Assembly (NCBI GenBank): GCA_000934665.2
Contig: JYFJ02003222.1
Location: 1 to 46,112 of the forward strand
Reading direction: 5' to 3'
DNA length: 46,112 nt
DNA from: Catajapyx aquilonaris
Lineage: Eukaryota
Part shown: piece after piece, positions 788 through 37,481 of the stretch
Position numbering within the stretch: position 1 is the first letter of the stretch
Layout of the letters: the number at the start of each line of letters is the position of its first letter
Made by a program: the position numbers and the translations under genes
The notes under the pieces: model-generated
What the model saw: the letters and a program-made list of their open reading frames with translations, nothing else
What the model was told of the DNA's origin: nothing
The model's database searches: none

Positions 788-1357
788 CTGCATCTCTTCA
801 ATTGGGCCTGGTTTCTCTGTAGCGTTATCATCATCGTCGGAGTAATTAAGTTCTTCCATGTTGATTTTTACAAAACGGGGCGTATCACTGACATCTCTTG
901 TTTCCATCCACTCTTCCTACATGAAAGAAGGGACAGGCAACGTTAATACCACCAAAATGGGGGGGAAAAAGGTCACCACAAATTTCTGAAATAATCCTTA
1001 TTTCCAGGACAAACTCACCTCAAAGACCATACCACGAGCTGGTTCTACTTTGGGAAGCATGACCTCATGCAGTGGAAGACAGTTTGAATCTTGTGATATT
1101 GTGGGTAGAATTTCATCATTTCCTTCCCTCCCTGGCTCAGGGTCTGATTGGGTAGCCGCATCCTTCCTGTGGAATTTCTCCATGAATCCATCCTTCCTGT
1201 GGAATTTCTCCATGAATCCATCCTTCCCGAGGAATTCCTCCATGAATCCAATCTTTCTCCCTATGTCGTCCAGCTGCCTCTCCATCCTCAGAGACTGGTT
1301 CAGGTCCCTCTTCATGAGGCGCATCAACTGCTTCCAAGGCGGCACGTCCTCGGCCAT
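788..1357 (-). CDS. Gene A (partial): coiled-coil-cassette family member; exons 1357-1019 and 916-788, terminal exon(s) not found in the window
   Basis: QLMRLMKRDLNQSLRMERQLDDIGRKIGFMEEFL aligns with IYQMLERSLAQSDRIEKKLDEVEKRVGRLEAVI of genes B/C. Has a PKVEP motif. GT-AG phase-0 junctions join in frame to an acidic exon starting EEW, like the ENW/DDW/ANW exons of B-D. Confidence 0.7.
1161..1250. repeat. 30-bp coding tandem repeat, 3 copies (KDGFMEKFHR-like unit on the minus strand)
   Basis: TCCTTCCTGTGGAATTTCTCCATGAATCCA twice plus a variant third copy. Confidence 0.95.
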
Positions 1358-11329: not shown

Positions 11330-11560
11330 CCAGTTGTTATTGACTCGTGTTTCACAACAATGAATAGTGGGAATGACCGAGAATAATAATTTATTAATCA
11401 ACCCACTTGCAAAAGGACGAGGCCAACATGAAAAAGGCGTGTGATCTTTCAAAGTCAAAGGCACTAGTGCTTGTGTACTTCACCTGCTTATTTGAAGGTT
11501 ATTGAACATTGACAGTATATTGACCCTAGACATAAGCAACTCACATTGAGCAATGACACC
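11330..11560 (+). repeat. Duplicated non-coding block, copy 1 (between IR3 and IR4)
   Basis: Alignable with 15284-15507, e.g. AAAGGCGTGTGATCTTTCAA.GTCAAAGG, GAACATTGACAGTATAT and GCAACTCACA.TGAGCAATG. Confidence 0.85.
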
Positions 11561-16111: not shown

Positions 16112-18451
16112 ATGGATGCATTTGCTGTGATTATAGGTGCTGCTGGGCATCAGGGCAACGGAATGTCAGCGTCGGCTGCTGGTAATGGTAATGGGGAGGT
16201 GTTGCAAATGCTGTGTGGGATATACCAAATGCTGGAGAGGAGTCTGGCGCAGTCGGACAGGATCGAGAAGAAGCTGGATGAGGTTGAGAAGAGAGTTGGG
16301 AGGCTAGAGGCCGTAATTCAGAGGGAGAGGGAAGAAAGTACTGCGCAAGGTCAGACGACATTGCACACTCTTAACATGGCTCCTTTAATGAGCATTAAAA
16401 GCCTAAAATTATTAAAAAGCAAAAAAAAAAGAGAAAAAGGCTCACATTAAAATTTTACAGGTGGAAGTTCTGAAGACCATACTATTTCTGACGTCAAGTG
16501 TGAAGCAGAAAAGTGTTTCATTCAAGAACGTCCTGGCAGGAGCCGTGACGCCTACATGCCGGCAACAGATTTAACAGCGTTCAAGCAGGTGAATTTATTC
16601 GAATGTGATTTTGTTTTTGATTCTGCAAATGTTTGTATTAGATATTAACTGAACCACAAATTGGACTGTCACTTGGAAAATACTATTCTTGGAATGATAT
16701 AATCTGCATGTCACCTCAGCTGTTGTTAAAAACACAAGAAATTTAGTTCATTATTTTTGTGAACGAATAGTTCCATGCACTAAGTTATATTTGAATGCTG
16801 TATCATATATGCATTAAAAAATTGCATCATTTATGACATTGGCTTCTGTTTTCGGTTTAGGAGAATTGGAATCCAGACCCCACAGAATTGACACAAGACG
16901 AGAACATAGATGAGACTGATGAAATTGGCCATGAAGATCCTCTTCGCATGGAAGTATATCATTCTGCAAGTGATCCGCTGGGATTTGTCCTATCCGCAGG
17001 AAATCAGGCAAGCCTACAGATAGTGTTGAATATACTTCATCTAAACTTACCCTTTTGTAAGTCTGCCAGCCAATCATGTATATACACCATTTATATACGT
17101 ATGTTATAGGCTGGCACAACTGGCAGGAAGCAAAGAGCAGTACTTTCGAGATGTGCCACACATGCATTACAGCTTTGTAATGATAATTTGTATTACTCAT
17201 TAAAACTGCGCTGAATGTGAGTGTTTCCAAATGGTATGAAGACATACACACTTTGGTACACCCAGATCGCATGTGTGCTGAAACATCATTTACATTGAGA
17301 ACCTAGCATCAAGCTGAATTACACTGTTGATGGAAATAATGTTTTGTATTTGGACATGGCACAAGTATAATCAATTTTTCCGATTTTATTGTTATCACTT
17401 TCAGGATTGGAAGCAAGTTATGAGATTAAAATTCAGCCATTTCAAGTTCACACCAGGCTTACACAAGCTACTTACAAACACAGAGATGGTCCCCCAAGAG
17501 CACTGCAAGCTGTTGTCTCTAGCCAAAGATGAAGTCATCAAGTTCTTGGAGTAAGATTACTTCAGAGTACTGTTTCTTGTGTTTTAGACTTGAGTCACAT
17601 TGCTATCAAGGCGTCTTTCTTCACTCTACACTCTTGTTTCCATTCACTATCTATCGCTATCTATCCTGCATTCTTATGCAGTAACAAGATAGCCGTAGTT
17701 TCTTCGTCTTCTTTCCACTCAAATAACCACCTGGGCACATGGGGATCACCTTAATCCAGGAGAGTCCGTGAAATTTTTAACTGATACAAAATGTTAGCTC
17801 AATTCTGAAGCACATGATATGTGACACTGTTTATTTTACTATTTTGCTTTCTTTACAGTGAGGAAGAGTTAATTGAAACAAGAAATACGAGATGTGCTGG
17901 ACTTCAATATAAATACCTGGGTGATCTCATTTGCAGTACTTACCCTGATTTCCAGTGGGATAAGTGGAAAAGAAAGGATAAAGAGCTCGTGCCAGCACAT
18001 CAGAGGCAGGTTAGTACAGTGGTGGAAATTAATGGATATCCACAAGTATGACCATCTGGCGGAGTTTGCCCTCTACATGAAGCTGCTTCGTCCATTAATT
18101 TCCACCACTTTACATACATTATGGCAGGAATTATATTAGTCAGAGAAGTATCTAAATTATAATAAGACAGGCACTGTTATAACTATAAACTGGATGTTCT
18201 GACAACAACCAAACAATCCTTAGTTACAGCAGTTTCTGTTATAAAAATAGAAAACTGCGTTTGGTGACATACTGTAGAAAATTAATGGAACTACTTACTT
18301 TGGTATATACAAATGTGGCAATTTCATTTTACAGCAGTTTTTCATTAGAACACTTGCTGAAAGGAGGCGCATGCGACGGCTGCGAAAGATTTGGCAAGGA
18401 CCGAGGAAGAAAACTTCAATGGAAAACGTGCAGTGCACCCCCATGTCTTAG
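16112..18451 (+). CDS. Gene B: coiled coil + acidic linker + unknown helical/basic C-terminal domain, about 308 aa; exons 16112-16349, 16461-16588, 16861-17007, 17405-17550, 17859-18009, 18335-18451
   Basis: Exons splice in frame (phases 1,0,0,2,0) and match gene C exon for exon. Intron 3 needs a GC donor. Confidence 0.82.
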
Positions 18452-19833
18452 GTTACCATTTAAAAAATAGTTTGGAAACACATGTGAATTCAGAAACTTC
18501 GACACACTTGTGCCATTGGTGAGTCCATGATCATGGGTAAACTTGAAAGCCCTGCCGAGAGTATTACATTGTTTTTACATTCTCCCACTACTCCTGGGCG
18601 TAGTGTGTTGTTCCCTAAATGATTCTCATCAGGTGTATTCTGTTAGACCTGGACACTTTTGCATCTCCGACTGAAGTTTTATTAAGTCCACTGTCGCAAA
18701 GTACAGTGTAAGTACGAGTACAAATGGGATTATTATATGTGTTGAGACCTTACTCAAAATTTAATAGGAAACGTTCTATTTACGTCGTATTCATTATTAG
18801 CCATTAGTATCCAGATCAGAAATCATAATGAGTTAAATATTTGACAAATAAAGAAGTCGCTATTAGTTTAACTACCTAGGAATTAGATTCCTGAAAGTAC
18901 GAGAAATTGAGTAATTTAATTTTTAATTGAGTATAGTGGAAACTTGAAATAAAGGTCTTCTATTGACTTTTATTTTCCTCTTCAGAAGTAGAGCTTTTGT
19001 GTACCCATTTTTGATGAAGTGCCTGGGTCCGCAAGCAGGGCAGGGTGACTGGGAGGTGCAGGATGCACATGTAATGTTGTTGCTTGGCCATTCTGTGAGT
19101 TCACCCGGATATCTATGCACCTGGGCGGTTAGCAGCTATGAAGCAGGTGTACGCCAGTGTATGGCGTATACCCATAGGGTAAAAGCGACATGTTAGACTA
19201 TATGCAACTATACACTGCGCTGAGTATACCTTATATTTGGAATGGTGCCCAAGTCTTATTCGCTTCATTTCCCCTCCTGTTGTTTTTAAATTATAATACA
19301 CAGTAGGACTATAAACCACGTTATCTGCTGCCAATATCAAATGTATATTTTCTATGTACTGTTAGTGTAGTCGAATAAAACCTGCATAACATTTTTTTAC
19401 AAAAGCATTCTTAGCTCAATATTCTGCAAAAAAATATGCTCGTGTATTTATATGTGTTTGTCAAGTGTAGAAATATTGGTAGGCCTAATTTACCTCGAGG
19501 CGCATTCGCCCGATACGATTAATTTTCAGTCATGAACATTATGCGCCAAATTGCAGAAAAATTACTTTACTTCATTACGTTATTATTACAATTAACAGAC
19601 ATATTCTGCTGGAAGTGGAACAGTCATAATATCTGATTGACAAAATAATAGAAAAATTTCCCAAGTAAATTGGGATCTTCGTTTTTATTGAAAGAACGAG
19701 GTGCATATTTTTACTAGTCCATAAAACGGGAGGAACAGCAACGTATTGTGCTGTACCTGCTTTGTATCTTATTAACACCCTTACATTAAATTAATCAATA
19801 TGTATTAATAGTTATTAACAAAAAAGTCCAATG

Positions 19834-19954
19834 CCGTATCACGCGATACGGTTAACTGGCAGTCCATCGTTCCTACTAATACTATCCCTTATTTCTGAAC
19901 CGTTCCGAACTGATCATGGCGCACTGGTAGGAATGCGTCTTCCAATATGGCGTC
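19834..19954 (+). promoter_or_regulatory. Probable gene C promoter: CCGTAT-N6-ATACGG palindrome and YY1/Pho-like CAATATGGCG
   Basis: Paralogous to 15781-15903. Confidence 0.5.
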
Positions 19955-20237
19955 TTGTGTAATGATTTTTTTCTTTTCTTCTTTTGTCGGCTGCCAATAA
20001 TGAGTCGCTTTGAGTGAAAATTCGCATGTTATTCATACACCAGGAGGACATACTGAACAGGCAATTACTGTAAGTATAACTAGAACGCATTTGGAGAATT
20101 TTGCAATTTGTTTATACCGGTCCATACTTTGCAATATGATATTAATATTTATCAGCCGGTGTAGTACGGATGTGACACTTAATGGAATGTAAGTACACCA
20201 GATAATTGTAGAGTGCAACGACTAGGTACATCAGCTC

Positions 20238-20287
<50 letters not shown>
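20238..20287. repeat. (AAT)n microsatellite
   Basis: About 16 AAT units, with GGTACATCAGCTCATAA occurring on both sides. Confidence 0.95.
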
Positions 20288-20424
20288 CCGGGTACATCAG
20301 CTCATAAACTAGTAGATGTAACGAGCGATGGCATTAATTCACACCTTTTTTTTACAGGCAGCTGGAATACATATTTGGCACACTTGCTGTGTGACTACTT
20401 ATTGGACAAAGTAATTTCGACAAA

Positions 20425-22173
20425 ATGTCAACCGCAGATGGTAATGGGGATGTGTTGCGGATGCTGCAAGGGATATACCAAATGCTGGAGAGGAGTCTGG
20501 CCCAGTCGGACAGGATCGAGAAGAAGGTGGATGAAGTTGAGAAGAGAGTTGGGAGGCTAGAGGTCATAATTCAGAGGGAGAGGGAAGGGAGGGAAAGTAG
20601 CGGCCAAGGTGAGACTAAAAACAGCATAATTTAATTCAGTCATGCACTTGAAAACACATTAATTTTCCATTACTATGGATGGCATAAGCAGTATATTGTA
20701 CATTTTTTTACTAAAATCCTACCCTAGTTCTGTAGTATAAATGCACTGTCCTGACAGATTACAGTTCTGAAGAACATCCTGTCACCGATGTGATTAAGTA
20801 TGAACCGGAAGAGTCTGTTGAAGCTCACATAACTGCGGAAAGTACCAGCAGCAGCAACGCTGCCTACATCCGGACAACAGATTTTAGTCGCACCTTACGA
20901 AACGAGGTGACGAGATTACATTCTGATTTTATTAAAACAATTGTTGTTGTATTGTGTTCCAAGTATGTTTCCAGTTTTACAGGGAAATTTAACGTGGCGT
21001 AATTGATGTAACACAAAATCATGCGTTGCTAATGTCGATGTGCATTCTGTTTTTGGTTAGGATGATTGGAAGGAAGAGCCTGCAGAATTTGCACAAGATG
21101 AGAACATGGATGAAACTGATGATTTAACTCATGAAGATCCTCTTCAGAGAGAAGCGTATGTAACTGGCCATCCTTCGGATAATCAACCAGCTGCAGCAAA
21201 TCAGGTGCAGATGCAGATATGTAGTACATATATGCTAAATATGGTTTGCAGCTATGTAATTGTTACGTCATATGTAAAAATTGCATTGAATGATTCATTT
21301 TCAAAGGACTCTAAGTGCTCTAATGACCATGATACAAAAGTCTGGACTCAGTTGCAAAAATGTAAGCTACATTTGTATTGATGAAACAGCTTCATTGTCA
21401 CACATTAATGTCCATGGATGAATGGATGGATGAAACAAGTTTTTTGAAACATGAAATTGGCAAGATCAATTTTTCTAATAATTACTCTTTGCAATTACAG
21501 GATTGGAAGCACAAAATGAGGGACAAATTTAACAGTTTCTGTTTCACAGCAGCACTAGAAAAGCTAATTACAAACATAGAGATGACTCGGCAAGAGCACA
21601 GCAAGCTCGTGTCTGTCGCCAAAGATGAAGTCATCTCCTTCTTGGAGTAAGTTTATTCCAAAGCATTCTATGCTCTCAGTTCTATTGCCATCAATGATTC
21701 GTTTACAGCAGGGAAAAGTTAATTCAAACACGCAACACTAGAAACGCCGGACTTCAGTACAGATACCTGGGACATCTTATACGAAGCTCATACCCTAATT
21801 TTCAGTGGGACATGTGGAAAGGAGGCAGTGAAAAGCCTGTGCTACCTACTCAGAGGCAGGTTAGTATACATAAATGGCAGGAATATTTTTTTCACAAACA
21901 TGTCCAAATAATTTTGTGCGACTGAGCCAAGCGTTGCGTTTGGATTATCTCAACCGGTTTTTGGACCTGGTGTATTTTTGTGTTGGACTAGTAACTTCGC
22001 ATTTAACGTAGAATTATGTCGATGTAAATTTTACAAGTCGAAACTTCAATTTACAGCAGCTGTTCATTGGGAGACTCGCTGATAGGAGACGCAGAAGACG
22101 GCTTCGAAAGTCATGGCAAGGTCCGACTAAAAATAGCAACATGGTACACTTGCAATGTACCCCCATTACTTAA
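20425..22173 (+). CDS. Gene C: paralog of B, about 296 aa; exons 20425-20608, 20758-20906, 21061-21204, 21501-21646, 21709-21859, 22057-22173
   Basis: In-frame GT-AG splicing. The last three exons have the same lengths as in B (146, 151, 117 nt) and conserved AKDEVI.FL, AGLQY.YLG.LI...YP.FQWD.WK and FI..LA.RRR.RRLRK. Confidence 0.85.
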
Positions 22174-22745
22174 ATTTGCATTTATAATAATTTCCATAGT
22201 TTTATCAGAAGCATTTAAAATATTGGTAAGTTGAGGTCCTGAAGTGTTGTGACTTTTTTTTTTTTTCATTTTTGTATATGTATCGTACAAGAAATTTTTT
22301 AAATATTCAGGCTACACGTTTCTATGGGTTCCTCCTAGGCATTATGTACAAAGGTAACATGTAATGTAAGATAATAAAATTAATATCTGTAATATTAAGT
22401 ACATAATGTGTCGTCGTTACGAACAGTTCATGATCAGCCACCCGAATGCAGCCGGCATCAAACATGGCGACGTCGGAAATTCTCATTGTTCTTCTCTGAA
22501 TTTTGTCCCACTTATTTGTCCTGGTTCTGGAAGGATTATCTGGACGTCCGTGTGAGTATTGGGTCAGGACAAATCAGTGTTTAAGATGGTGAAGTAAGAT
22601 GGTGAGTTTGGCTATGCAGAGGGGGGCTCGCATGTTCATTTTTTGATGGGGAACGTAAGCTAATCGCATTAACGACGAGCTGAAATGACTGAATTTTAAT
22701 TAAAATTTTCATTGGTTTTCCTGACATGTTCTTACCGCAAGAAGA

Positions 22746-23694
22746 ATGATGGAAGCAGGATCTGTGAATGATGCGGGCATAGCGATCTCGGTGGATATGG
22801 AACAAGATGTTCTTCAGATGCTGCATGGTATCTACCAGTTGTTGGAGAAGAGTCTGGTTCAGTCGGATAGGATTGAGAAGAAGGTGGAGGAGGTGGAGAA
22901 GAGGGTAGAACGGATTGAGAAAGCTATCCAGAAGAGGACAAGCGAGAGAGGAGAAGGAGAGGGGCAAGGTACATGACTGGAGTTGACAGTTTTGTCACTT
23001 CCTTATCTAAGGTTGATGGGGCTTGATAACTTTGTAGCAAATGGATTATTTTTGGTTCATTATGTAAGTTAATATCTGCTGTCATGTTATTGAGGTGAAC
23101 GCTATGAAGGTGCAAAGTCCACATTGTCGCACTAGGTGACAAATGCGGCGTGGTGGGGGTTTTTATGTCACAGAAATGAATGTGAGCTGTCACACTGAAG
23201 CAGCTCAATCTGGTTGAAGTTCTTACCACACTATCCTTTAAAAACTTTTACATATTTTTTTCTTTCACAAGGCAAATAATACCAACATGACACATTTATG
23301 GCTTAATTATTTCAATTCTGCTGCTAAAAAATTTTGATTTTTAAAATGTTAGTGAAAAAACCCAATGGTTATTTTGTGGAGAAAGACGTGAGTTTCGCCA
23401 ATACTCATATATGCAGGATGTTCCTTCCCAGTATGTTGTCCAGGCAGCGACATACTTATTGTCCAAAAACAAGTCAAAAATGTAGTGTGGAGAAATGTTG
23501 AGAGACCAAAAGGTAATGGGAGAGACGACCAGAAACATTGGCTTGCCCTTAGACACATGTGTCACCACACCTCTTTGTAGGGAGATAACCTGACAGGTAG
23601 ACCTGCATACTTACAGTGGTTGCCTAGAGAGCAGGATATGAGGAATAGCAATCACTAGGCACCAACTTGCCAAAATTAGGCAAAATTGCCAAAG

Positions 23695-23744
<50 letters not shown>

Positions 23745-26356
23745 GACCAGGCAGTGACATTCGACGACGAAGTACCGAAGTAAGACGGTGCGGAGGTAGC
23801 GCCTGCGCTGCTGGAGCGGCGTTTATGGGAACTTCTAGGGGTTATAGAGGACACCAAGACAAACATTTTTCACATAGGAATCCGGGTCAGGAATGCCATC
23901 TAGAGGGGGTTCATAGACAAGGAACGGATGTGTCACTAACGAGCAGACTGTTTAGTTACTAGGTGATGCACGGAGAGTAAACACCGTCTCGACGAGCAAT
24001 AACCTGGCAACAACAGATCCACCTAGCAACTAAAGCTCTCTTGCTAGGCAGCCTGCAGATAGTAAACAACGGCTCTGTTGTTGCCAGGTTATTGCTCATC
24101 ATGTCGGTGTTTACTATCTGCTTGTCACCGAGTAACTAAACAGTCCGCTTGTTCGGCCCTTCTGCCTGACACGTCTGAGCGCACCCGTTCCTTGTCTATG
24201 AACCCCCTCTAGATGGCGTTTCCGGACACGGGTTCCTATGTGAAAAATGTTTGTCTTGGTCCCCTCTATTACCCCTAGAAGTTTGTCGGTTGAATTCATT
24301 TACGCTCCCCAATAATTGCAAGATGTCATACCAAAAAAAAAAAAAATTGTAGGCCTACTCATTACTTTTTATTATTTAAAACAAAAATCACACAATCTGC
24401 CCCCACCCTCCAAAAAATAACTTCAAGTGGAGTATAATTGATGATCTTTGTTTTCCGCACAGGTTATTCGTGTTTAGAATTTACTCCTGTTGATGGTATC
24501 AAGTGTGAGCCGGAGGAGTTTCAGGAAGATCCTGAAACTGCAGAAGTTCCGTGCAGTTCAGATTTTCATGAGCCAATGTTCATGCAAGGATCTGAACAGG
24601 AAAGAGGTTTTGAAAGTGAGGTAAGGTACTAGTGCTCATAGCAAGGTTTACAGTTTTAACATTAAAAAAAAGTCATCATAGAAGGAGAGTTCATGAAAAA
24701 GTAGCTTTAATTCCTATTAACATTATATTCAAATCACATTCATTTAAATAAATGGGAAGTATTTACCTATCAGCAAATTAATCCAATTGTTACATGCTGT
24801 GTGCTGGGCATGATCTACCTTGATACTGATTGGGCACTACATCAAATTTTGTAGCTGTGGCCTCATATAAAGGGACATTTACAGTACCGTTTATACTAGT
24901 GATTCCTTCTTGTTGGTTTAGGCAAATTGGAAGCAGGAGACCACAGAATGTGCCCAAGATGAGATGGTCACTGAAGAAGCAAGTGTACTTTCTGAAGGAG
25001 ACCCCCTGCTGAGAGGAGCCAACATGTACGGTCAGCCTGCAGAATTTGGCACAATAGCAGAAAAGGTGAGCTAGATACATTGCTGCTGTGTAATTTGCCA
25101 TCATGCAGATAAATAGTTCATGAGTTTGTGGAAGACAACATTTCATAAGAACAAATGGTGTTCTGACAATATCAAGCCATCATTTAGAAAGAGAATATCT
25201 GCTGCTTTCTTGCTTTAAATTTAGTTAAAGGACCATCAAAATGAGATATAATACAGGGATGTGACAATATGTTGCTTTTAGACAAAATGGTTACAGCTCT
25301 CTGATAATAACTGATAATAAAGATCTAAATCAGCATTCTACAAGATCAGGTGCTTATTCTAATTATTCTGTTTTTGACATTTCCAATCATGTCATATGCA
25401 TGAATAAGTGTACCTGCTAGACCGACCTCATGTGCGCCACCCCTACGTGCATTGTACTGAACTTGTGCAGCATATCTTATTTGTGCCTCTGTTAATACAG
25501 GGGCACAATCTCAAGGAGCAATGAAACAATATTTTATAATATTGTAACAAAATTACAAATTATGCATGGCATAAAAAATTATATAATAATAATTATAATC
25601 CATTGAATCAATTACTTATGTGCATGTGTATGCGTTCTCTTTTAGAGTAACTATCAGCAGGGCAAGCTGATGGATATGCAAGATTCTTTTCAATTTGGAG
25701 CTGGAGATAAGAGATCTAATACTACCTCAGAACTGGAAGCAAGATCAAATCTGTACACTGGAATTGCGGAAGGTCATGGAACATACGAATTCAGCGTCAA
25801 GCATGGTGATAGTTCAGTCCTTATGGTTACAAATAGTAGAAGAGGCCGCCCTTCAAGAAGTGATTGTGGTAACTCAGCTTCCGAGAGGTCAGGTGTGATG
25901 CCAGCTAATGTGTCAAGCAATAATGCAGTCTGTTCAAACAGCCTTAGGACTGCAACAGAGTATGAATTGCCAGGTCACCAAGGAAAGAAAGAGCAAGTTT
26001 GTCCTATTTGCAAAAAGGTGTTTACTTTGAAGGGAAATATGGTGAAACATTTGCGAGCCACACATTGGGGAGTGCGACCATTTTCTTGTGACATATGTAA
26101 CAAGGCCTTTAGTCGACGCAGTCATTTGAAGGCGCATGTTCATTTGCACACTGGAGAGAGACCGTATTGTTGCAAGGTTTGTGGAAAATCATTTAGTCAA
26201 AAGGGTGCTTTGCGTGCACACATGACTCTGCACACCAGAGAAAAGATTTTTTCTTGTGATGTATGTGGTATTACATTTGCTACCAAGAGAAATTTGGCTA
26301 CCCACAGAAGGGTTGGCCACTTGCCAGGAATCACACTGGAGGAAGAGCCCCATTGA
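22746..26356 (+). CDS. Gene D: coiled coil + acidic linker + 4 C2H2 zinc fingers, about 411 aa; exons 22746-22968, 24463-24620, 24922-25065, 25646-26356
   Basis: Exon 1 VLQMLHGIYQLLEKSLVQSDRIEKKVEEVEKRVERIE, exon 2 IKCEPEE, exon 3 ANWK...GDPL. The last exon has four C2H2 fingers including a TGERPY linker. Phases 1,0,0. Confidence 0.85.
23697..23741. repeat. (GA)n microsatellite
   Basis: Pure GA run in intron 1 of gene D. Confidence 0.95.
23830..24303. mobile_element. Foldback MITE with eroded termini, same family as 1-238
   Basis: AACTTCTAGGGGT.ATAGAGG...CCAAGACAAACATTTTTCACATAGGAA pairs with TTCCTATGTGAAAAATGTTTGTCTTGG...ACCCCTAGAAGTT; inner arms GAGCAATAACCTGGCAACAACAGA / TCTGTTGTTGCCAGGTTATTGCTC. 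Confidence 0.85.
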
Positions 26357-27928
26357 ACTGTTCCTGGCAGGAGAGAGTAAATCATGCGCTTAGAGCAGTG
26401 ATCTGAAGAGTTACGTTGCAATGACTGAAGAAATGATCTGATTGTGAATCAAGATCTGCAAAGCAAGGTACTAGCGCAAAATTACACTATTTCTACAGCA
26501 ATTTAGTTTTGAGTGTAGGCGCAAGCGGAAGATGGAGTGGTTTGGCCATGAGGCAATTAGAGGACATTATGCACATATAGGGAAGGCGTATGAATGTGGA
26601 TGGTACAGTACTATAGTGCCACCGGTGTTCAGGTGCAAATGGTATGCTCACCCACCAGCGTTCAAGATCTGGCGTAAGAGACTTTCATATTCATGTCTGT
26701 TTTCTTCCATAAGAATATTCCAGCATTTCAGGAACATCAACAGATTATGAGAGGACACTGGCTGATATTTAGGGCACTGCAGACTACCTAAGGTACAGTC
26801 CCGAGCATAATGTTGGAGATGCTGCGGGCCTTCTCTGACCTTCTCTGACCTTCCTTCAACCAACTCAAATTAACTGACCGTTTTTAGGCCAGGTTAGCTG
26901 CTGTAGGCATGTGTTCGTGTATTTAGAACCATATATTTTATACCGTAATGGCGGGGATTGGCAGAGCACCCTGCCGGAGGGGAAGGCCTGCTGTCTCCAA
27001 CTTTATGCTTGGGACTGTTCATTCCTGTGAATGTAATGGACCCTAAAAAGATGCGATATTGCAACAATGTCTGGTTTTTCTATAGGTGGTAAACTGGTTT
27101 TATTTTCCCAGAAGGATAATCATTTCTTCATATTCCAGCATGACAATCATAGGTTAAAGGTACAGATACATATTTAAAATGGAGACTGTTTCCAGAAACT
27201 ACAAGCCCAAGCGACGCCATTCTCATGATGTCACACAGCGACGGCATTCTTTGGGGCAAAACATCACTGACGGTATACACTTATCTGCAACTTCAAGCCA
27301 CTGGATAATATACTCTGGAATAATAATTGACTATGACCTCAAGCAAGGCACATTTTGTATGAAGAAAAATACTTCCTGGTAATGAGGCAGAAGTTTTTGT
27401 AGGATGGGCAACTCTCATCTAAATGTATATTATTTACCTATTTGTTTATTTTTTTACTTATGAAATTCTGATGGAGCATTTAAAATTATTATGGCATTCA
27501 AAAGTTGTGACTAACTGACAAGTGAGTATAACAATATGGCAAGAACTTTCATAGTTGGTGTTCCCGGAAAACATGACCTTATCGCAGTGTACACATGTTT
27601 TCATTAAAATTTCAGTGTTGCGCCATAATACCCAAAGTGTGATAATAACCTGGAGCAGTTCTCAGGTGCAAGACAATATTTTCAGCACTGCCTCCCTGAC
27701 CGCCAATTTCCTTGCATTTTCATATTATTTTATTGGTCTTGTGAGATGAGAGGAGAAGTGTTGAGTTTGTCCGCATAGGGCGCCCCACTCCAAGGCAAAA
27801 CAATCAGCGCCTCCAAACGGACAGGGGTTGAAACAATCTACAGGCACATCTTCTGGACCGTCCATGTACGTGTTGCACCTCGTGGCAGCGCAAAATTTTC
27901 GCAAAACCACCAGTTGCACTGTGATCTG

Positions 27929-30900
27929 ATGGAGGGGATGGGGATGAACGAAGAAGAGGTGGCAATGGAGACGATTGTGGCGAGGCTCCTTCCGGACGAC
28001 GGAGACGGCGGGGAACTGGTCCGGATGCTGAGGGACATACACGTGTTGCTGGAGAGGAACCTGCTTCAGTCCCAGAGGACAGAGGGGAAGGTGGACCAGG
28101 TGGGGATCCGTCTGGAGGAGGTCCACAGGAGGGTGGGACGCATAGAGGAAGCCGCGCTGGTCATCGGGGCGGGCAAAAGAAATGGAGATGCAGCAGGTGA
28201 GACAAAGGAGTCCTGCAGGGTGTGACTTATTAGTCTGTCGTCTGTGCAGCGGCATATTCATTGGCCCAAAACAAGTCGAAAATGTAGGGGGAAGAAATGT
28301 CATAGGACAAACCAGTAACGAGGTAGAGGACCAGATAATTGGCAATACATTACACAGGTTGTTCCCTTAATATTTCTCACCCCTACATTTTCGTCTTTTT
28401 TTGGCCCCACAGGACTAATGAGTCACAATTCCCATACATCAATTATTGATGTATGGGAATTGTGACTCTATTGATGTATGGGAATTGTGACTCATTAGTC
28501 CTGTGCAGCAGTGTATTCCTTGGGCCAAAAAAAAGACGAAAATGTAGGGGTGAGAAATATCAAGGGAACAACCTGTGTGATGTATTGCCAATGTATCTGG
28601 TCCTCTACCTCGTTAAGTCAAGGAAAAAACTCCACAGTCAAAGGGTTAATGCAATTAAATTATTTAATTACATTAACCCTTTGACTGTGGAGTTTTTTTC
28701 TTGACCAAAATTTGTAGTAGGAGTGATGAAAAGCAATATGCTCCAATCATTTCAACTCGGGGTGGTGCTTCTGATTGTAAAATGCTGAAAAATTCATCTA
28801 GAGGGTGTTCCAGAAACAAATTTAAAGTGCAGTTAACTTTAAATGTAATTAGATTTATTAAAATTTTTAAAGTCACTACAAAATTGTTACTATGGTACCA
28901 AAATAATACTATAACTGTTTACTATGAGAAAAAGTCCTGACTTACGGGACCCCCAGTTCTGCGGGAGGGGGTATATTTAGCTCACGCTGGGAGGCGGAAA
29001 AACTGATTAGCATATGCCATGGTAGTTGAGCCCCCTTCACGAGGTGGTAGGAGCAGGAGTTTAAACTCTAGCGTGCCCAGTTCACAAACCCGCAGGACCT
29101 CATATGAGGCACGTAGCCCTCATATGGTTAAACAATCACATTTCCAGTGTTGTCTGAGATCTGTTGATTTTCTCTGTGTAAGAAATAGCAGTTTTCTAGT
29201 TTGATACTTTTAAGCAAGACTAGAAAAACCCTCGCTTCACTCACATTTCTCTATGGTGCAGGCCAAGAAGGCCTCTTCGTTCGCTTTTTCTAGGCCTGCC
29301 GCCTGGGGTGGTGGAGGCCATACTGTTAATCCCTCCAGATTTACAGCCAGTGATGATGCCCACCCCCCAATCATATGCACCACCCCCATCCGTTCCTCCG
29401 TTGTAAGGTGCATTCGCATATCCATGATTCCATATTAGAAGCCTTTCAAAATTTGACCACAATTGATTATGCAATTGAATTTTCCATTATTGCAACGTTC
29501 CTTGAATGTTCCAAACAAAGGGTCACTAACACACAGCAATGTTCCAAACTCCACCGTTCCAAACAAAGGGCTGCCAACATTATTTTCCACATGTGTATGT
29601 GTATGATTAGCATTGGGCATGTTCATCTTGATTATCCAAATGCCTGATTAACGCGCCCATTGACACTCCGAGTAATAGAAGTTAGTGATAATAATTAATT
29701 CTCACGAGTATTAACATACTATCGTAACATTCAAAAGGGCATACATTTCTTCACCCGCGCATACAACAATTCTTTTAGATATGTAGTGTCCAACGTCAGG
29801 AATTAATTAATTGCACAGCCCATGTGCCAGCGTGCCAAGTAAAACCTTGGCTAATTCCGCGACACACATGGTCAGGAATCCTGGGAAACTAATTTCGAAA
29901 TCCAACAATAAGTAAAGTAGACTTGTGCGGATAGAGTGAACCCGGCAAATTGGAAGTTGACCATGTCACCTACTTAGGTTACACTAAATCTGAATATAAG
30001 AACAGTTTGCAGCTGTCTTTTGCGGTTTAGGCCCTGATACCTGTCCACGGACAGACAGACAGACAGATGTTCTATAAGATTTTTTTTCGATGATGAGAAA
30101 AAGTTTAAAACTGTGTCCATATTTTGTATGTAACATGTATTTATTTTTTTTTGCAGGGGAGGATTATTATGAAGATGACAAAATACACATTATCAAGACT
30201 GAACCAGGAGAAGTTGAAGCACCTTTGGAATCCTCTTTAACCCCAAGTCCATGCTTCCTTGGTGCCTTTGATGAGATTATCTTCACACAATTAACAGAAG
30301 ATATTGCCAATGATTTTAGTCCAGAGGTGAGATCAAGAGTTGCTAATGATCACATATGTATAAGTTACCTCTAAGAAGGGGGAATTCTGGCAAAGAATGG
30401 CAGATGTGGACAGAAATTGAGCAGTGGGAAAATCACGGGAATACTATAATTCATTGGAAAGCATAAAAACACGTGACATGCACCCATTTTAAAAATATGA
30501 GTAATGACAGATCCATGGTGCTGATTAAAAGGGAAACAGATGCATTCTGCACCTGGGGAAGTGTTTGGAGCTTGGTCTCTGAATCCAAAGGTTCCGTGTA
30601 CTCGTAAAGTACAAATCAATAATTGTGAGGCCAAGTGTTTCCCCTCCTCCCTTCTTGTTTTCTTCTGAAGTTCTTTTTCTGCTCTTACATTTTGCTGTTA
30701 CACTGTTCTACAAAATAACACATTTCTATTTTCTGAAGATTTGAATAATAATTCCTATTGTACTTTCTGCGCTGAATCCGAATATCTGCTCAGAAGGTTT
30801 CCGTCGGGCACAGTTTTTGAGATATACCATTTTAAAGTTTGGAACGGTTTACTAGGGGTCTTTCCGAATCAAGTGGGCCTAAATGTTGCTAGACCGTCTC

Positions 30901-33900
30901 GGATCTTGGTGAAAATAATCACCCACAAGAATTCCAAAATGGGAATGTCCGCATATGTGGACAATAGGTCACAGTTTAACCCAGAGGAATGACTGTTTCT
31001 GTTGCATTTTCTGGGCACTCCATCAGTGCCAAGCAGGAATAATGTTAGGCTTGTCCAATATAACCCACCAGAATGTCAAAATGGTAATGTCCATATGATG
31101 TTCAATGATGATGGCTCTCCCCGCCAACCTACTGGAAGAGCAGAGGCGAATATATAAACCAAGGCCTGCTTCTGGTGTCTGGTGCTCTTAAGTAGTCATT
31201 TCTGGCCACCTTAAATGTACCAGAGCATTTCTCTTGCCCATGGGCAGAGAAGGGAATGCAATTCAGTCAATTCTACCCGGACATGTCGGGTGAAAAGCGG
31301 AAAAAGACCCGACCAAGCGAAGGTGACTGCCTGATGCGGACGGGATTTGAATCCCGGACCTCCCGCTTGGCTGGCCAGTAGAATAGCCACTAGACCACCA
31401 TGTCTGCCGCTGCCAAGTGACTTTCGCCTGTCCGAATGTATTTAAAAAGTCCCTTCGCCGATGCCATTTCGAGGGCATTTTTTACTGTGAAGAGTTGTCC
31501 TGGAGTCGGTGCGCCGCACCACCAAAAAGTGGTATTTTTCACAACACTGAGAAAGCAACTTAGTAATACGTTTTACAGACTAGAAAAAAGTAACAGTCTC
31601 TGAATGTCACAGAACGAATACTGTTTAGGCACTTAAATATTTTATTACTATGTTCTTCAGTGCAAAACTAAATGATCCTTTATTGATTCAGGTAAAGATA
31701 GAAGATACTGAGGACATTAATGATGAAATAGAAGCAGAAAGTCTTAGCCTTGGAAGTGAGGATCCACTTCAGCTAGACGCTGCCGACAATGTCGACTGCT
31801 CAGATGGACAGCCAGACAGTGGCACAGCTGAAGAATATAATGTGAGTTTTCCAGAAGATTGCATGATTTACCGACTGGATGGTTGTCATGGTGTTATTCC
31901 TTTCTGCCTTACCTAACCCTGTTGTAGCAGGACGGTGTTGCTATTATACAGTAGACTGTGGATATAACAAACTTCAAGGGACTGCTGAAATCTGTTTTTT
32001 ATAAGCAAGGTCTGTTATAGTTAAATACACAGGCCATATACAGTGGTGGCCACAATTATATTACTGTACCTTTTTGTATTTTGGGCACAGGTTTTTCAGA
32101 ATTTTCCGATTGAGCTGAAATTTTAACATGCCATGCACAAAGGCATTTGAAGAGAATATGTAAGATTGGAAGAATTTTTGAGTTGTATTTAATAAAAATA
32201 AACAATGTTTTTGTTTATTTTTTCACGTACTTCAAAATTCAACAAAATCTTCAAACAACCATAACATTCTGAAAACTCAACCAAATGCTACAAAATATGA
32301 CAAGCCAGTCACTCACCTCTTGTAATTGGTCTGGTACCCTTGGCGTTGGTGACAGTTTGACATCTGCGAGGCATTGAGGCGACACACTTGCCTAACACCG
32401 ATTGTGGGATCTTGTTCCACCCTACCGCCAGTTGCTTGTACCTATCGGTGGTCCTGGATGCTATTTTGTTCTTCAGATGACATCCAAGATCCTCCCATAA
32501 GTGCTCGATCAGATTGGGGTCCGGAGATCAGCTTGGCCAGTCCATTATGGCCACCCTCTACTAGTGCAGCCAAGTGCGGACAAGCGTGGAGGAGTGCTTT
32601 GGGTCCTTGTCATGCTGGTACAGTAGAGACTGGCCAAAAGCACTCCTTGCATATGGACACATGACTTGGAGGATATCCCTGAACACCTCCTTGGTCAGAA
32701 TGCCTATAATTCGGTGTAGGAGATTGATTCCAAGAAAGCTGAAGCAGCCCAATCTCAACTGGACACAGATACAGTGGGTGAAGTCTTCTGGTTAGACGAA
32801 TCAAGATTTCTGATGTTTGGAACTGATGGAATAACCTACGTTCATCGTCCCAAAGGTGACCAATTTGATCTCAAGCACTAGATACTGACCGACAGGCAAG
32901 GTGGAGGATCCACGATAGTCTGGGGCTGCTTCAGCTCTCTTAGAATCAATCTCCTGCACCGAATTATAGGTATTTTGACCAAGGAAGTGTTCAGGGATAT
33001 CCTCCAAGAAGTCATGTGTCCATATACAAGGAGGGCTTTTGGCCAGTCTCTACTATACCAGCATGACAAGGACCCAAAGCACTCCTCCACGCTTGTCTGC
33101 ACTTGGCTGCACCAGTAGAGGGTGGCCATAATGGACTGGCCAAGCTAATCTCCGGACCCCAATCTGATCGAGCACTTATGGGAGGATCTAGGAACAAAAT
33201 AGCATTCATTAGGGGGGTGGAACACCACCATACTTTCCATTTTCTTGGTTTTTTCCTTCAAATTCCGGTGCAGGGAAATCGGGGAAAGTGGGTAAGGATA
33301 GGGATTTTTTTGAGGAGGGGATGCGGGTGCAAGTGCAATGTCTCAAACTGGGCCATGTGCAGTCCCCCAGGAGGTTAGGTTGCCAGACACCTCCTTGGTG
33401 CAGGTCAGAGACCCTCCTGATGCAGCCGAAAGGGAAATCCCGTGCGGGGATCAAACCCGGGACCTTTCGATCAGCAAGCCAAGCCGTTACCAGCTCAGCC
33501 ACCACACCTCCCCCAAAAAGGCAATATAATTATGGCCACCACTGTAATTATGGAAATATTGTGGAACCAGCCTTTCGAGCCCGCTAATACCAGAGTTTGT
33601 TACAGCCGAGGGTGTAATATCCATAGTCAACTGTATACATGGAGTCAATGTAGCTTACCTCTCCTCTGTCCTGCTATTCCCATTACATCTGGCATCCATC
33701 TTCCATGCGAAATACTAGTCCAAAACACTAGTTTCAAGGTAAAATTGCAAAATTATAAATGCTCTGCATGATAAGCAGGCATTGATGATTGAGTGGGGAA
33801 AAATTCCTTTTGACCTCTTATGCAACGTGTAGTTAGTCTTGTGAAGAAGGAGGAGAGTCGGCCAAGCGGCATGGGCTGCAGGCCGACAGAGTCTAAATAA

Positions 33901-35257
33901 AGAAACGAACAAACAACAAACAAACAACAAACAATGTGCAGTTAGTAATAACTGGAAACTGGGTTTTAACACAAATTCATTTAAATGTCAGGGGCCACTT
34001 TTAGTACGCCATATTTACAGCCGCATGGTCAGAGCTGTAATTCTCTCCATATTACTTGTAGTGAAGCAACCGATGGGACAGTTACACCCTAACTTATACT
34101 GTATGAAAATTCTGAAGGTTATGGGGATGAGATTATTGTGCATGAAGATTTTTAAAATGACCATGTGTCGCCTTGGTGTATTTTCCCATACTAATTTAAT
34201 TTCTTTAAAGGATAACTATCAACTGGTTGTGCCAGGAACATCTCAGGACTGTGGTAAGGAATGTTACCCCAAGACTTCTAAGATAACATGTGAGAAATCT
34301 CACTCAGCGAAGCTTCAGGATTTCATGAGGCAGAGAATTGATCTTATGGAAAGTGCCAATAGTACAATAGTAATAAAGAAACGAGTGCCAGGGAGGCTGC
34401 CTGAGAAAGAGGACATCCAGGACAATGTGGCCTGCTCCAACAGCGATGCAGAACCTCCAGGGAAGCTCAAAAAAGGCAGACCTAAGAGCAATTATGAACA
34501 GGAAAGTAGTTCTGAAGGTTCATCATCATTAGTCAAGGGCAAGAAACAATTAACAAAGAAAAAACAGGGATTACTTTCATTGCGTACAAAAACATCAGAA
34601 AAACGGAAGGTGAGCAAATTGGGAGGTCATCAAGGAAATACAGTGATGAAGATATATTCTTGCAAAGACTGCAAGAAATTATTCACTTGTATGGCAAGTG
34701 TGACCAGGCATTACCAAGCCATTCACATGGGTATAAGACCATACCCTTGTGGATCTTGTCACAGGACATTTTATCGTCCAACTGAATTGAGAAAGCATGT
34801 CCTATCACATGGGATGGAAGAGGGGAAATTTAGTGGCAAGGTATGCTCAGAAAAATTTAATGAGGCTGAGAACTTGCCTGATCACAAGCACACTAATAAG
34901 CAAAGTCAAGGGAAGCAGGAATATAGGTGCAAGATTTGCTCAAAAGCTTTTAATCAGCGTAGGAGCATGCAAATTCATATGGGTGTGCACACCAGACTCA
35001 AACGGAGATTGCATTTGGTGCCACCACTGGATAAGAAAATCACTGTTTGCACTGTTTGCACTGTTTGCGATAGAAAATTCTCATGCCAGGCCAGTCGGCA
35101 GCTCCACTACGATGCCGTTCATTTGGGGCTCAGGCCTCATGTGTGCAGCATTTGTGGAAAGTCATTCCATTACAAAAGTAACTTGCAGGTTCATCTGATA
35201 CGTGTCCATGGAGAAACGAACCCACTTCCACGTAAGAAGCGGCAATCTTTTAAGTAA
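27929..35257 (+). CDS. Gene E: coiled coil + acidic linker + 5 intact and 1 degenerate C2H2 fingers, about 544 aa; exons 27929-28196, 30157-30326, 31692-31841, 34211-35257
   Basis: Exon 1 LVRMLRDIHVLLERNLLQSQRTEGKVDQVGIRLEEVHRRVGRIE, exon 2 IKTEP, exon 3 VKIE...EDPL, last exon starts DNYQ (gene D: SNYQ). Phases 1,0,0. The start codon and exon 3 acceptor are less certain. Confidence 0.8.
28316..28615. mobile_element. Palindromic MITE-like element
   Basis: TAACGAGGTAGAGGACCAGATA...TATCTGGTCCTCTACCTCGTTA with pairing to the centre; internal tandem duplication of TATTGATGTATGGGAATTGTGACTC. Confidence 0.8.
28617..28705. repeat. Inverted repeat made of two piggyBac-like termini back to back
   Basis: ...CTCCACAGTCAAAGGG|TTAA, an AT-rich spacer, then TTAA|CCCTTTGACTGTGGAG... 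Confidence 0.6.
29220..30079 (-). mobile_element. Non-autonomous Helitron (Lep1-like organisation)
   Basis: Minus strand begins A|TCTTATAG followed by (CTGT)n and ends GAGTGAAGCGAGGGTTTTTCTAG|T. This gives 5' TC, 3' CTAG, an A|T target and no TSD. Confidence 0.65.
31095..31404 (-). mobile_element. tRNA-derived SINE (tRNA-Gly(GCC)-like head)
   Basis: A box TGGTCTAGTGG, GCCAGCCAAGCGGGAGGTCCGGG, B box GATTCAAATCC; (CAT)n-like 3' tail. The 3' boundary is approximate. Confidence 0.65.
32041..33544. mobile_element. Defective Tc1 (DD34E) element with inverted-duplicated transposase fragments
   Basis: TA|CAGTGGTGGCCACAATTATATT ... AATATAATTATGGCCACCACTG|TA. Plus strand reads VFWLDESRF, GGGSTIVWGCFS, YQHDKDPKHSS and WPS*SPDPNLIEHLW (34 residues between D and E). 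The same D..E segment plus the C-terminal SMPRRCQTVTNAKG is on the minus strand. Confidence 0.9.
33206..33508 (-). mobile_element. tRNA-derived SINE inside the Tc1 element
   Basis: A box TGGCTGAGCTGG, B box GGTTTGATCCC, AATG-type tail at the point where Tc1 arm homology stops. Confidence 0.7.
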
Positions 35258-37212
35258 ATCGGTTATTCCTAGCTTGCCTGCCAAGAAGGATAATTCTTGA
35301 AAGTCACAGTGACAACCCAGTGTTGGGGTGAAAGTGTCAAAGGTGGTGAGGTTCGAATCTGGAAGTTTTTAATGTTGGAATTACTTTTGTTTCGATAATT
35401 ATGCTTCAAGAAAGGAAAACCAGAGTCATGAGAAACAGATTTCATGTTGCTCTCAATAAACTTGAGAACTGGGAGAGGGATGGAGATTATCGTAATCTGT
35501 GAATTGGTATTTGTATGATGCCTTACGATATGACCTGAAACTTGTGAAGCATTGCACATTACTCAAAGGTTAAGTTGCATCTGTAACATGTAGGTTAATT
35601 GGATATCAGTCAACTCCATGCGTAATATGTGCATTGGTTTTCTTGCATGTTATTTATCTGGGTACAATGTATTATGTAGTTCAGTTGGCTGTTAGCCAAT
35701 ATTATTCGGATGGTATGAGTTCCTACTTTTGATACACTACCTATTTCTTCATATTATTTAGGCAGGATGAATAAAGTTGTTTTTCAATGTACTGTATTTT
35801 ATGGAGATGTGCAGCTTCATTTGCAGAATCATCATCCATCACAGCATATTGGAGTTTATTTTGCAAGTGCATTATATCCAATGCATGCGTTATACTGTGA
35901 AAACACTGTATGTGAATCTCAATATGCGAAAATGATGGCGATCAGTACAGCATGCCACATTATCATCCCACTATTGCAACTGTAGAGATTGTTCAACACT
36001 ACGGCAAGTCTGTCCCCCTCCCCCCCCTGCATGGAAAATAATGCAAGTGAGTATCAGGAATTATCACCACCCACTCAATTCACTCTCAATGAGCCCGTTG
36101 TTGCACATTGAAGGCTGAAATAGACAGATATCTGAAATAATGTACTATTCTTTCCAGCGGCACTATTACCTGGTACTGTAATGACACAACTCTTGTGGTT
36201 CTCTGAGCCCAGAAACTCCATCACAGCAAGCTGGAGATGACCTTTCAGAGCTGAAACAATGCATGCGACATCACTTGCAGGTGAATAGGTAAAGAGAGAT
36301 TGTCCTCTTGTGTGGTACGTACTGTACTGTGGTTGAGCCTGAATGCGTAAATTAATCCAGAATGCCAATTTTTTATTAGTTTTTTTCACTTTTCAACTTC
36401 TCCATAATCTCTGTACATGTAGCCCTTTGTTGCTGAACACACATAACGGAACAGTCACTTTTGACATCTCAACTCAATATGCCAGGAACAACACCTTTTA
36501 GCTTACAAAATAATAAAAATACATTCGTAGTTTAAAAAATAGTGACATTCAGGAATATTATGATAACTAAAACTCATGTGCATCATGTTATCATGATTTT
36601 GCAACAAAAAATGCTTACAATAACTATGGGTAGTAAATAAATAATGGGTGAAAATATTGCTAAATGAACTAAATTGCTTGAACTTCTTTACTGAATTGCT
36701 GCTTCTTCCATTTTAAGCCTGGTCCATCCTCATCATCTTACTGGGAGATTCCCCCAATTCCAAAATAGATGTATCCATTGGCTCTTCTTCAATCCTGAAG
36801 GACCTCTTGAACTGAAAGAAAACAATACATGATGATTGAGAGTTACTAAGGCTTACTGCAGGATAGGAATATTCAAATGTGAAACCCTAAATTGTGATAC
36901 GTCATTGTCGGACTAGTACCTTCCTGAAATTAAGGCACATTTGATGAGGTAGTATCTGATAATGCGAGGGCTGGAGTTTGAATATTAATGTACTAATATT
37001 AATAATATAATAATATTTTAATATTAGTCATGACAACACTGGTATACTTTGAAAGAGGATAAGGGGCTGAACCGGTCTGAGCCAACCTACTGGTCCTGCA
37101 GCCCAACAACACTGGTTTATTAATTACACTACTTTTTCCTACAACTTTTGACACTTTTTTCACATCCGGATTTTGCTACCACTGTCCTATTGCATGTCAC
37201 ATGTTATACTAA

Positions 37213-37345: not shown

Positions 37346-37481
37346 TTATTGCAACTCTGAACTATTGTCCAAGTGTCAAATTTACTATGGAAAACAATGT
37401 ATTAATATATGTGTAGTGAGTGGATGTCCCCCCACACGAGCCTATGGCTCGCAACACGGGGCTGACAAATAAATAAATAAA
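37346..37481 (+). mobile_element. 5'-truncated retroposed fragment (LINE/SINE 3' end)
   Basis: Ends in (AAAT)n and is flanked by the direct repeat ACATGTTATACTAAGGCA, whose left copy is split by the MITE. Confidence 0.65.

Follow-up and report, generated by a model that had tools for sequence, protein, structure and literature searches.

Families that pair one oligomerising or effector front module with different DNA-binding partners (BTB, SCAN, KRAB, ZAD, DUF3669) shape the expansion and rewiring of transcription-factor repertoires. The SCAN-domain zinc-finger family belongs to the vertebrates, and the ZAD is an N-terminal domain with four conserved zinc-binding cysteines. DUF3669, which occurs in some KRAB zinc-finger proteins, has been described as a domain that oligomerises (PMC6923878), and a recent preprint reports that it comes from the coiled coil of LINE-1 ORF1p and drives trimerisation (bioRxiv 10.1101/2025.03.01.640934). 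FiNZ, as characterized in PMC10547256, is a glutamate-rich N-terminal sequence of 28 residues that is confined to cyprinid fish and present in about 700 zebrafish genes. The locus analysed here lies on contig JYFJ02003222.1 of Catajapyx aquilonaris (assembly GCA_000934665.2), the whole 46,112-nucleotide stretch of which is called the window below; it is eukaryotic DNA with a GC content of about 40%, GT-AG introns and C2H2 finger exons. Four intact neighbouring genes, B, C, D and E, all on the + strand (16163-35257), begin with the same three coding exons, referred to as the cassette, and continue into one of two unrelated C-terminal modules. It is moderately probable that these genes form a tandem cluster of paralogous, probably nuclear, regulators, whose history is one of local duplication and then exchange of the 3' module at a phase-0 intron, and which carry an oligomerising cassette.

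One cassette, two kinds of C-terminal module

Gene models were built from splice sites, and the junctions were checked base by base. The resulting reading frames encode 291 (B), 296 (C), 411 (D) and 544 (E) amino acids, each open to a single terminal stop. The intron phases are 1,0,0,2,0 for the pair B and C and 1,0,0 for the pair D and E, and intron 3 of B (GC..AG) is the one intron of the four genes that is not GT..AG. The order, boundaries and phases (1,0,0) of the N-terminal cassette exons are identical in all four genes, and both these splice models and tblastn searches inside the window uphold the claim of an earlier, sequence-only reading that three N-terminal coding exons with this phase pattern are common to B, C, D and E.

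The same reading had held that the genes part company after the phase-0 boundary that ends exon 3, and this also stands: in the splice models D and E continue into one C2H2 exon and B and C into three unrelated exons, to the exclusion of each other. In tblastn comparisons within the window, exons 4-6 of B and C match only B and C, and the finger exons match only D and E, arguing that the two C-terminal types are unrelated and, within the window, exclusive. The two halves of the proteins also differ in charge, with a pI of 4.05-4.23 for exons 2-3 and of 9.5-10.6 for the C-terminal parts of all four genes.

The most likely route to this arrangement would be tandem duplication to form the cluster, with one lineage swapping its 3' module at the phase-0 intron after exon 3. 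The swap could have run in either direction; the split (B,C versus D,E) is all that four taxa give, it is unrooted, and the C-terminus of gene A, a fifth copy, lies beyond the window edge. That fifth copy had been counted by the sequence-only reading among five versions of exon 1, and it is indeed present. This copy, which is on the minus strand, has diverged (hmmsearch E 2.5e-4) and combines the equivalents of exons 1 and 2 in a single exon. Within the window, tblastn detected no exon 4-like or finger-like match below position 788, and the remainder of gene A runs off the edge.

Joined exons and the finger exons of D and E

Joined exons were found in contigs from one public run of unrecorded library type (X1), which contains 0.22 of the sampled words; no RNA run was listed as containing the locus. 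For gene B the contigs include the joints 16349>16461, 16588>16861 and 17007>17405, and one 511-base contig spans exons 1-4; the last joint is listed as 17003>17401, with five ambiguous letters, and fits the GC..AG intron. For gene C the joints 20906>21061, 21204>21501 and 21646>21709 connect exons 2-3-4-5, and leader-exon joints were seen for C (20069>20358) and D (22551>22742). These joints coincide exactly with splice models made beforehand; the simplest reading is that the joined forms are transcript-derived (cDNA). The X1 joints listed include none for exons 1-2 of C, exons 4-5-6 of B or exons 5-6 of C. The exon chains proposed by the sequence-only reading are thus joined as predicted in B (exons 1-4) and in C (exons 2-5), and the listed joints include no coding joint of D or E.

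Two other features of the X1 contigs touch these genes. An unspliced 380-base contig (19006-19385) lies between the stop codon of B and the leader exon of C and stops close to an AATAAA at 19374; it may come from a long 3' untranslated region of gene B. The summed contig depth is 72-119, with many loose ends, at 23812-24462, 30973-31623 and 32926-33576, compared to about 1-10 elsewhere, and these high-depth bins in introns of D and E are probably interspersed repeats.

Pfam zf-C2H2 matches D with an E value of 1.3e-24 (85.6 bits, cut-off 25.2) and E with 2e-12 (47.3 bits), and a regular expression finds four regular fingers in D and five in E, together with one degenerate finger in E, placing both among the C2H2 zinc-finger proteins, which carry tandem fingers of the form C-x2-C-x12-H-x3-5-H. 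The arrays are short, unlike the long KRAB- or FiNZ-type arrays, and are preceded by a long linker with a GRP core in a basic context (RRGRPSR in D, KKGRPK in E). An AT-hook is a GRP core flanked by arginine or lysine (R-G-R-P), and the linker motifs are AT-hook-like, with the canonical core in D and a variant in E; no Pfam AT-hook match was listed. The GRP motif and the four or five fingers would together provide sequence-specific DNA binding. Contigs from X1 partly cover the finger exons of both genes (records 4-6).

The splice from exon 3 to the fingers of D and E is predicted from strong donors (AAG/gtgagc and AAT/gtgagt), from acceptors with pyrimidine tracts and a matching phase 0, from the [S/D]NYQ with which both finger exons start at the acceptor, and from a stop codon that overlaps the acceptor of D and closes its finger-exon reading frame. 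If, on the other hand, the cassette transcripts of D and E ended elsewhere, and the finger exons belonged to genes of their own or served as alternative terminal exons, the apparent domain swap would be an artefact of annotation. It is true that no contig joins exon 3 to the fingers in either gene, that exons 2-3 of D are uncovered in X1, and that the finger frame of E stays open over the 366 bases before the proposed acceptor. The splice sites, phase and shared exon start just listed nevertheless speak for joined exons, tblastn finds no exon 4-6-like sequence downstream of exon 3 in D or E, and the same arrangement occurs twice independently, in D and in E, so that an artefact is very unlikely.

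The heptad helix of exon 1

Exon 1 is the best conserved part of the cassette. In a motif search the heptad exon turned up four times on the + strand, near 16211, 20464, 22821 and 28028, and pairwise tblastn in the window gave E values of 3.7e-26 for B versus C, 4e-17 for B versus D and 4e-8 for B versus E. The description of this exon as a heptad exon of roughly 40 residues holds for the heptad stretch, which measures about 42-49 residues, but not for the exon as a whole, which encodes 61-89. There are six heptads in B, C and D and seven in E, where the insertion is exactly seven residues and the register is kept. In the six heptads of B, C and D, strong hydrophobic residues (Leu/Ile/Val) fill 10 of the 12 a/d positions in one register (a longer segment counts 10 of 15), and the other two positions are invariant, centrally placed serines. 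The alignment has 17 invariant columns, including L..SL.QS.R.E.K..EV..RV.R.E. AlphaFold2, given the four-sequence alignment, models exon 1 of D as one uninterrupted helix over residues 7-71, with a mean pLDDT of 95-97 for 10-residue blocks from residue 21 to 60. Exon 1 thus combines a continuous heptad repeat, hydrophobic a/d positions and a long helix, which are the marks of a coiled coil.

Exon 1 is under purifying selection, with a dN/dS of 0.10 for both B-D and C-D at a saturated dS of about 2. The pair B and C shows a separate peculiarity (16185-16356 versus 20438-20615), with a dS of 0.11 in exon 1 as opposed to 0.87-0.95 in exons 4-6, and a DNA identity of 87.6% as opposed to 73-79% in the rest. 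The low dS suggests either recent gene conversion of exon 1 or constraint at the nucleotide level.

An amphipathic helix of six or seven heptads would most likely form a parallel coiled coil, making the proteins oligomeric. As a rule, beta-branched residues at d positions of a coiled coil favour a trimer or tetramer, and the beta-branched Ile/Val at d in exon 1, along with the invariant Ser-Ser polar layer, leans toward a trimer or tetramer over a dimer. B, C and D have nearly the same residues in the a/d core, making mixed oligomers of these three proteins plausible. A complex prediction for exon 1 of D with exon 1 of B scored 0.11 against a mark of 0.34, with controls that were not folded, and was used neither for nor against binding.

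The helix might instead dock onto a shared cofactor such as a co-repressor, in which case the cassette would be a KRAB-like effector and not an oligomeriser. In all four genes the best conserved stretch, LxQSxRxExK, is invariant and polar; this is uncommon where a coiled coil has a structural role alone, and it would suit a specific binding surface. The acidic exons 2-3 resemble effector peptides. Against this, regular a/d spacing over six heptads and a one-heptad indel in E are typical of self-associating coiled coils. Docking in place of oligomerisation is therefore unlikely, although a docking helix could keep the heptad pattern too, and the two roles are not mutually exclusive.

Exons 2 and 3

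The remaining cassette exons are acidic and less similar than exon 1, yet they keep the same order and phase across the genes. For exon 2, tblastn gave E values of 0.001-0.003 (C versus D) and 0.01-0.02 (B versus C); for exon 3 the values were 2e-12 (B versus C), 2e-5 (C versus D) and 0.004-0.005 (C versus E). Each exon 2 contains psi-K-x-E once (VKCE in B, IKYE in C, IKCE in D and IKTE in E), 10-11 codons past the first full codon of the exon in every gene, and only two further matches occur across the four proteins. The SUMO consensus or synergy-control motif consists of psi-K-x-E, optional flanking proline and then acidic residues, and at the level of a sequence motif it is present in exon 2 of all four genes. 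In C, D and E the motif continues into proline and acidic residues; the KxEP exon of the sequence-only reading accordingly exists in three of the four genes, but B has VKCEAE. Exon 3 carries (E/G)DPL in all four genes, as had been proposed, and in B, C and D its first residues are [E/D/A][N/D]W.

The psi-K-x-E site and its acidic neighbours could be a SUMO-type switch for repression or modulation, and the acidic Trp...(E/G)DPL segment could be an effector or a partner-docking peptide. In its most ambitious form, close to what the sequence-only reading suggested, the model would make the cassette an undescribed, lineage-restricted platform of coiled coil and SUMO switch that was shuffled onto two nucleic-acid-binding modules (AT-hook with C2H2 fingers, and a new helical, Arg-rich domain), with mixed trimers or tetramers of finger-bearing and finger-less paralogues giving combinatorial DNA specificity or antagonism. 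This extended version is rather unlikely as a whole.

The helical, basic module of B and C

Exons 4-6 of B and C (phases 2,0) encode a basic region of 137 amino acids with an arginine-rich end. The module has a pI of 9.8 and 10.6 in the two proteins, which are 62-65% identical over exons 4 and 5, and it is under purifying selection (dN/dS of 0.24-0.26 for B-C in exons 4-6). Folded alone, exon 4 forms three helices with a pLDDT of 82.5. The basic composition would fit nucleic-acid binding, and hence a nuclear role. The module exons had no Pfam match in an exon-wise scan, a mode with lower sensitivity for exon-spanning domains, and against PDB sequence profiles they gave a best E value of 0.85 or nothing. 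With the exon-4 model, which is a fragment, the best Foldseek E value was 6.6, and the best VIA-align Z score was 5.1, to generic helical rows.

Three named domains were considered for this module and set aside. A SAND domain was suggested by DWKxxMR in exon 4, which resembles the KDWK motif, but the preceding sequence does not fit and the exon-wise scan gave no Pfam match; a BEN domain (from the stretch F-L-D-E-E-E-L) likewise has no Pfam match, and for MADF (from YPDFQWD) too little sequence follows.

The layout of B and C, an N-terminal coiled coil followed by a basic C-terminal part, recalls ORF1p and raises the question of whether a transposable-element protein was domesticated to give the coiled coil or even the entire protein of the B/C type. 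DUF3669, as reported in the preprint cited above, provides a precedent for such an origin (bioRxiv 10.1101/2025.03.01.640934). The beta-branched d positions would fit a trimer here as well, and repeat remnants are found in introns of E. Domestication of this kind is nonetheless quite improbable: no exon matches a Pfam transposon protein family at E <= 1 (single exons were scanned, an insensitive procedure), each gene has three to five conserved introns, no reverse transcriptase or transposase frame adjoins them, and tblastn finds only the copies listed here in the 46 kb. As to the remnants, an inverted pair of similar reading-frame fragments at 32309-33144, in intron 3 of gene E, has a weak Pfam similarity to DDE_3 (E 0.22); by their motifs we take the fragments to resemble remnants of a Tc1/mariner-type transposase.

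Searches for relatives and the weight of the evidence

Pfam-A (2025 copy) was scanned exon by exon, at lower sensitivity for domains that extend over several exons, with exons 1 and 2 of all four genes and with exon 3 of B, D and E. No scanned cassette exon reached any gathering score, and KRAB, SCAN, BTB, zf-AD and DUF3669 gave nothing at E <= 1, in agreement with the earlier claim that the N-terminal domain is not KRAB, SCAN or BTB. The companion claim, that the cassette lacks the ZAD cysteines, is borne out by the exon-1 alignment, which has no invariant cysteine, as well as by the blank result for zf-AD. The weak Pfam similarities of the cassette exons were to coiled-coil families, namely HSBP1 (E 0.02-0.6), BLOC1_2 and DUF7310. 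Considering Pfam and PDB together, exon 1 weakly resembles only coiled coils (such as HSBP1, SNARE and GCN4; E 0.02-0.95), and nothing among the PDB sequences was significant.

Broader collections were blank. In a protein collection, exon 1 of C drew 35 candidates and exon 5 of B drew 3, none of which scored; a coverage control with the neighbouring channel reading frame of about 600 residues (8982-10778) drew 4730 candidates, and again none scored. The silence of the collections thus reflects their coverage and says nothing on animal proteomes; apparently they contain no relatives of this animal. A four-sequence profile of exon 1 had two matches among 1.84 billion proteins (12 and 5 matched stretches), both rejected as chance; by Pfam they are a repeat ATPase and a long coiled-coil protein. 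The same profile found 127 pattern stretches and no relatives in metagenome contigs, where an exon-5 profile found 95 stretches and one candidate (L001), rejected as a bacterial-type membrane protein that shares only YPDFQWD. The ESM Atlas returned unnamed clusters only, with low recognition, and there were no Rfam matches and no ARAGORN genes. A keyword search of the literature, which is a weak instrument, found no heptad N-terminal cassette described as common to C2H2 and non-C2H2 paralogues.

These results bear on the possibility that the family, though genuine, has been annotated or described before for its animal lineage, as a lineage-specific zinc-finger-associated domain outside Pfam. 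The blank channel control makes the blanks for exons 1 and 5 uninformative in this respect, and lineage-specific N-terminal domains such as FiNZ were, going by the account in PMC10547256, named only recently. The failure of every scanned cassette exon to reach a Pfam-A gathering score and the empty keyword search count the other way, and prior description is possible, if somewhat unlikely.

Several observations weigh against the duplication-and-swap model or against parts of it. Regarding gene structure, the unrecorded library type of X1 leaves its cDNA nature uncertified, no coding junction of D or E is among its joints, and two depth bins over exons 2-3 of D are empty. Both finger exons contain internal ATGs and could in principle be translated alone. 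As for the cassette, exon 2 of D versus E is not significant by itself (E 0.17-0.43), B is without the proline of the KxEP motif, and a long helix can also serve as a partner docking site instead of in self-association. DNA binding by the B/C module is not backed by any match to a family, fold or solved structure in the searches described. Finally, no relative was found outside the window, and so this may be a family of very few members. With these points taken into account, the preferred reading remains a tandem cluster of paralogous regulators with a replaced 3' module and an oligomerising cassette.

Features of the window

The exons of the cassette genes and of gene A are collected in Table 1.

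Table 1. Exons of the cassette genes in the window; record numbers refer to X1 contigs, and splice joints are written as last base>first base.
Feature	Position	Strand	Remarks
Gene B exon 1	16163..16349	+	start maybe at in-frame ATG 16112; helix about 16199-16324; ends in phase 1; joint 16349>16461
Gene B exon 2	16461..16588	+	acidic; psi-K-x-E (VKCE) at 16493-16504; ends in phase 0; X1 joints on both sides
Gene B exon 3	16861..17007	+	acidic, ENW...HEDPL; ends in phase 0, GC donor; joint 17007>17405
Gene B exon 4	17405..17550	+	opens the helical/basic domain; folds alone into three helices; ends in phase 2; X1 record 1 covers it
Gene B exon 5	17859..18009	+	TRNTR.AGLQY.YLG...YP.FQWD region; ends in phase 0
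Gene B exon 6	18335..18451	+	Arg-rich tail RRRMRRLRK and stop codon
Gene C exon 1, coding part	20425..20608	+	exon from 20358, after leader intron 20070-20357; helix about 20452-20577; joint 20069>20358, X1 record 3
Gene C exon 2	20758..20906	+	IKYEPEE at 20793-20804; joint 20906>21061
Gene C exon 3	21061..21204	+	DDW...HEDPL; X1 joints
Gene C exon 4	21501..21646	+	helical domain; joints 21204>21501 and 21646>21709
Gene C exon 5	21709..21859	+	X1 joint
Gene C exon 6	22057..22173	+	Arg-rich tail and stop codon
Gene D exon 1, coding part	22746..22968	+	exon from 22742, after leader intron 22552-22741; helix about 22809-22934; joint 22551>22742
Gene D exon 2	24463..24620	+	PVDGIKCEPEE at 24498-24509; splice model, without read support
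Gene D exon 3	24922..25065	+	ANW...EGDPL; splice model, without read support
Gene D last exon	25646..26356	+	linker with RRGRPSR at 25838-25858; four C2H2 fingers at 26000-26320; X1 record 4 covers 26307-26673
Gene E exon 1	27929..28196	+	helix about 28016-28162, with insertion of 7 residues (one heptad)
Gene E exon 2	30157..30326	+	IKTEPGE at 30192-30203; no X1 joint seen
Gene E exon 3	31692..31841	+	VKIEDTED...SEDPL; no X1 joint seen
Gene E last exon	34211..35257	+	linker with KKGRPK at 34469-34486; five C2H2 fingers and one degenerate finger at 34661-35209; X1 records 5 and 6 cover 34672-35243
Gene A first coding exon	1019..1357	-	divergent heptad region and LPKVEP in one exon (equivalent to exon 1 plus exon 2); phase 0 at its end; hmmsearch E 2.5e-4
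Gene A second exon	788..916	-	acidic; opens with EEW, comparable to the exon 3 start in B, C and D; phase 0/0

Several other reading frames lie around the cluster. Between gene A and the channel cluster, the frame at 2235-2702 (-) has a C-terminal match to Pfam Glyco_transf_10 (fucosyltransferase; E 4.6e-28) and is probably one exon of a gene. The channel cluster consists of four tandem intronless frames of 591-611 amino acids (3810-13992, +). Two of them were scanned (3810-5579 and 12160-13989) and match Pfam Lig_chan weakly, at an E value of about 1e-8, which suggests that these are divergent ionotropic-receptor-like genes. Downstream, a pair of paralogous coiled-coil frames at 37365-38009 and 40104-40622 (both -) share the pattern KMQD.ESLM.VI..H.AEE.KLRNL; the second contains an acidic EEEPMD, which recurs in a frame at 36716-36886 (-). 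By tblastn this coiled-coil gene pair has no detectable relation to the cassette (best E 0.087). The frame at 45068-45307 (+) has a sub-threshold match to the coiled-coil model Pfam PUMA_CC (E 1.8e-6, 28.3 bits; cut-off 30.1) and, after it, the motif CPRCG, and is probably an exon of another gene.

Relation to known systems

The cluster is a small and clean example of modular assembly, in that the modules are exchanged at one phase-0 intron and the two architectures are direct neighbours. It thereby offers a tractable system in which to ask whether finger-less paralogues modulate finger-bearing ones via the coiled coil, whether the SUMO-type site acts as a switch, and what the B/C domain is. 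Should the cassette turn out to be widespread in its lineage, a zinc-finger-associated N-terminal domain would have been invented independently once more; a cassette restricted to these few genes would make the cluster an ordinary local gene family.

Judged by its exons, the family is of a familiar modular kind, and the scanned front-module exons match no Pfam family. Short, lineage-restricted N-terminal sequences that define a zinc-finger subfamily, as the cassette may, are found in the ZAD and, by the description in PMC10547256, the FiNZ proteins. Compared with FiNZ as described there, the cassette has a heptad helix of 42-49 amino acids, was seen in four or five genes and precedes short finger arrays. 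Its heptad helix is without a conserved cysteine, in contrast to the Cys4 zinc-binding fold of the ZAD.

Further parallels come from modules that oligomerise. SCAN resembles the cassette in being a helical oligomerisation module encoded by its own 5' exon or exons before a C2H2 array, with finger-less members and tandem clusters. It differs in forming a multi-helix, domain-swapped dimer in place of a single heptad helix, and no SCAN match was obtained at E <= 1. BTB/POZ provides the parallel of one N-terminal module found with different DNA-binding modules in paralogues (BTB-ZF versus BTB-BEN or BTB-HTH) and forming homo- and hetero-oligomers, but it is a globular alpha/beta fold of about 95 residues, unlike a coiled coil with acidic peptides, and Pfam BTB does not match. 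DUF3669, to judge from the two sources cited at the outset, is likewise an N-terminal, coiled-coil-type oligomerising module added to zinc-finger transcription factors; the cassette differs from it in having no Pfam DUF3669 match and no KRAB, and in being attached to a non-finger domain as well. The cassette of genes B to E is thus a plausible variant on the theme represented by SCAN, BTB and DUF3669.

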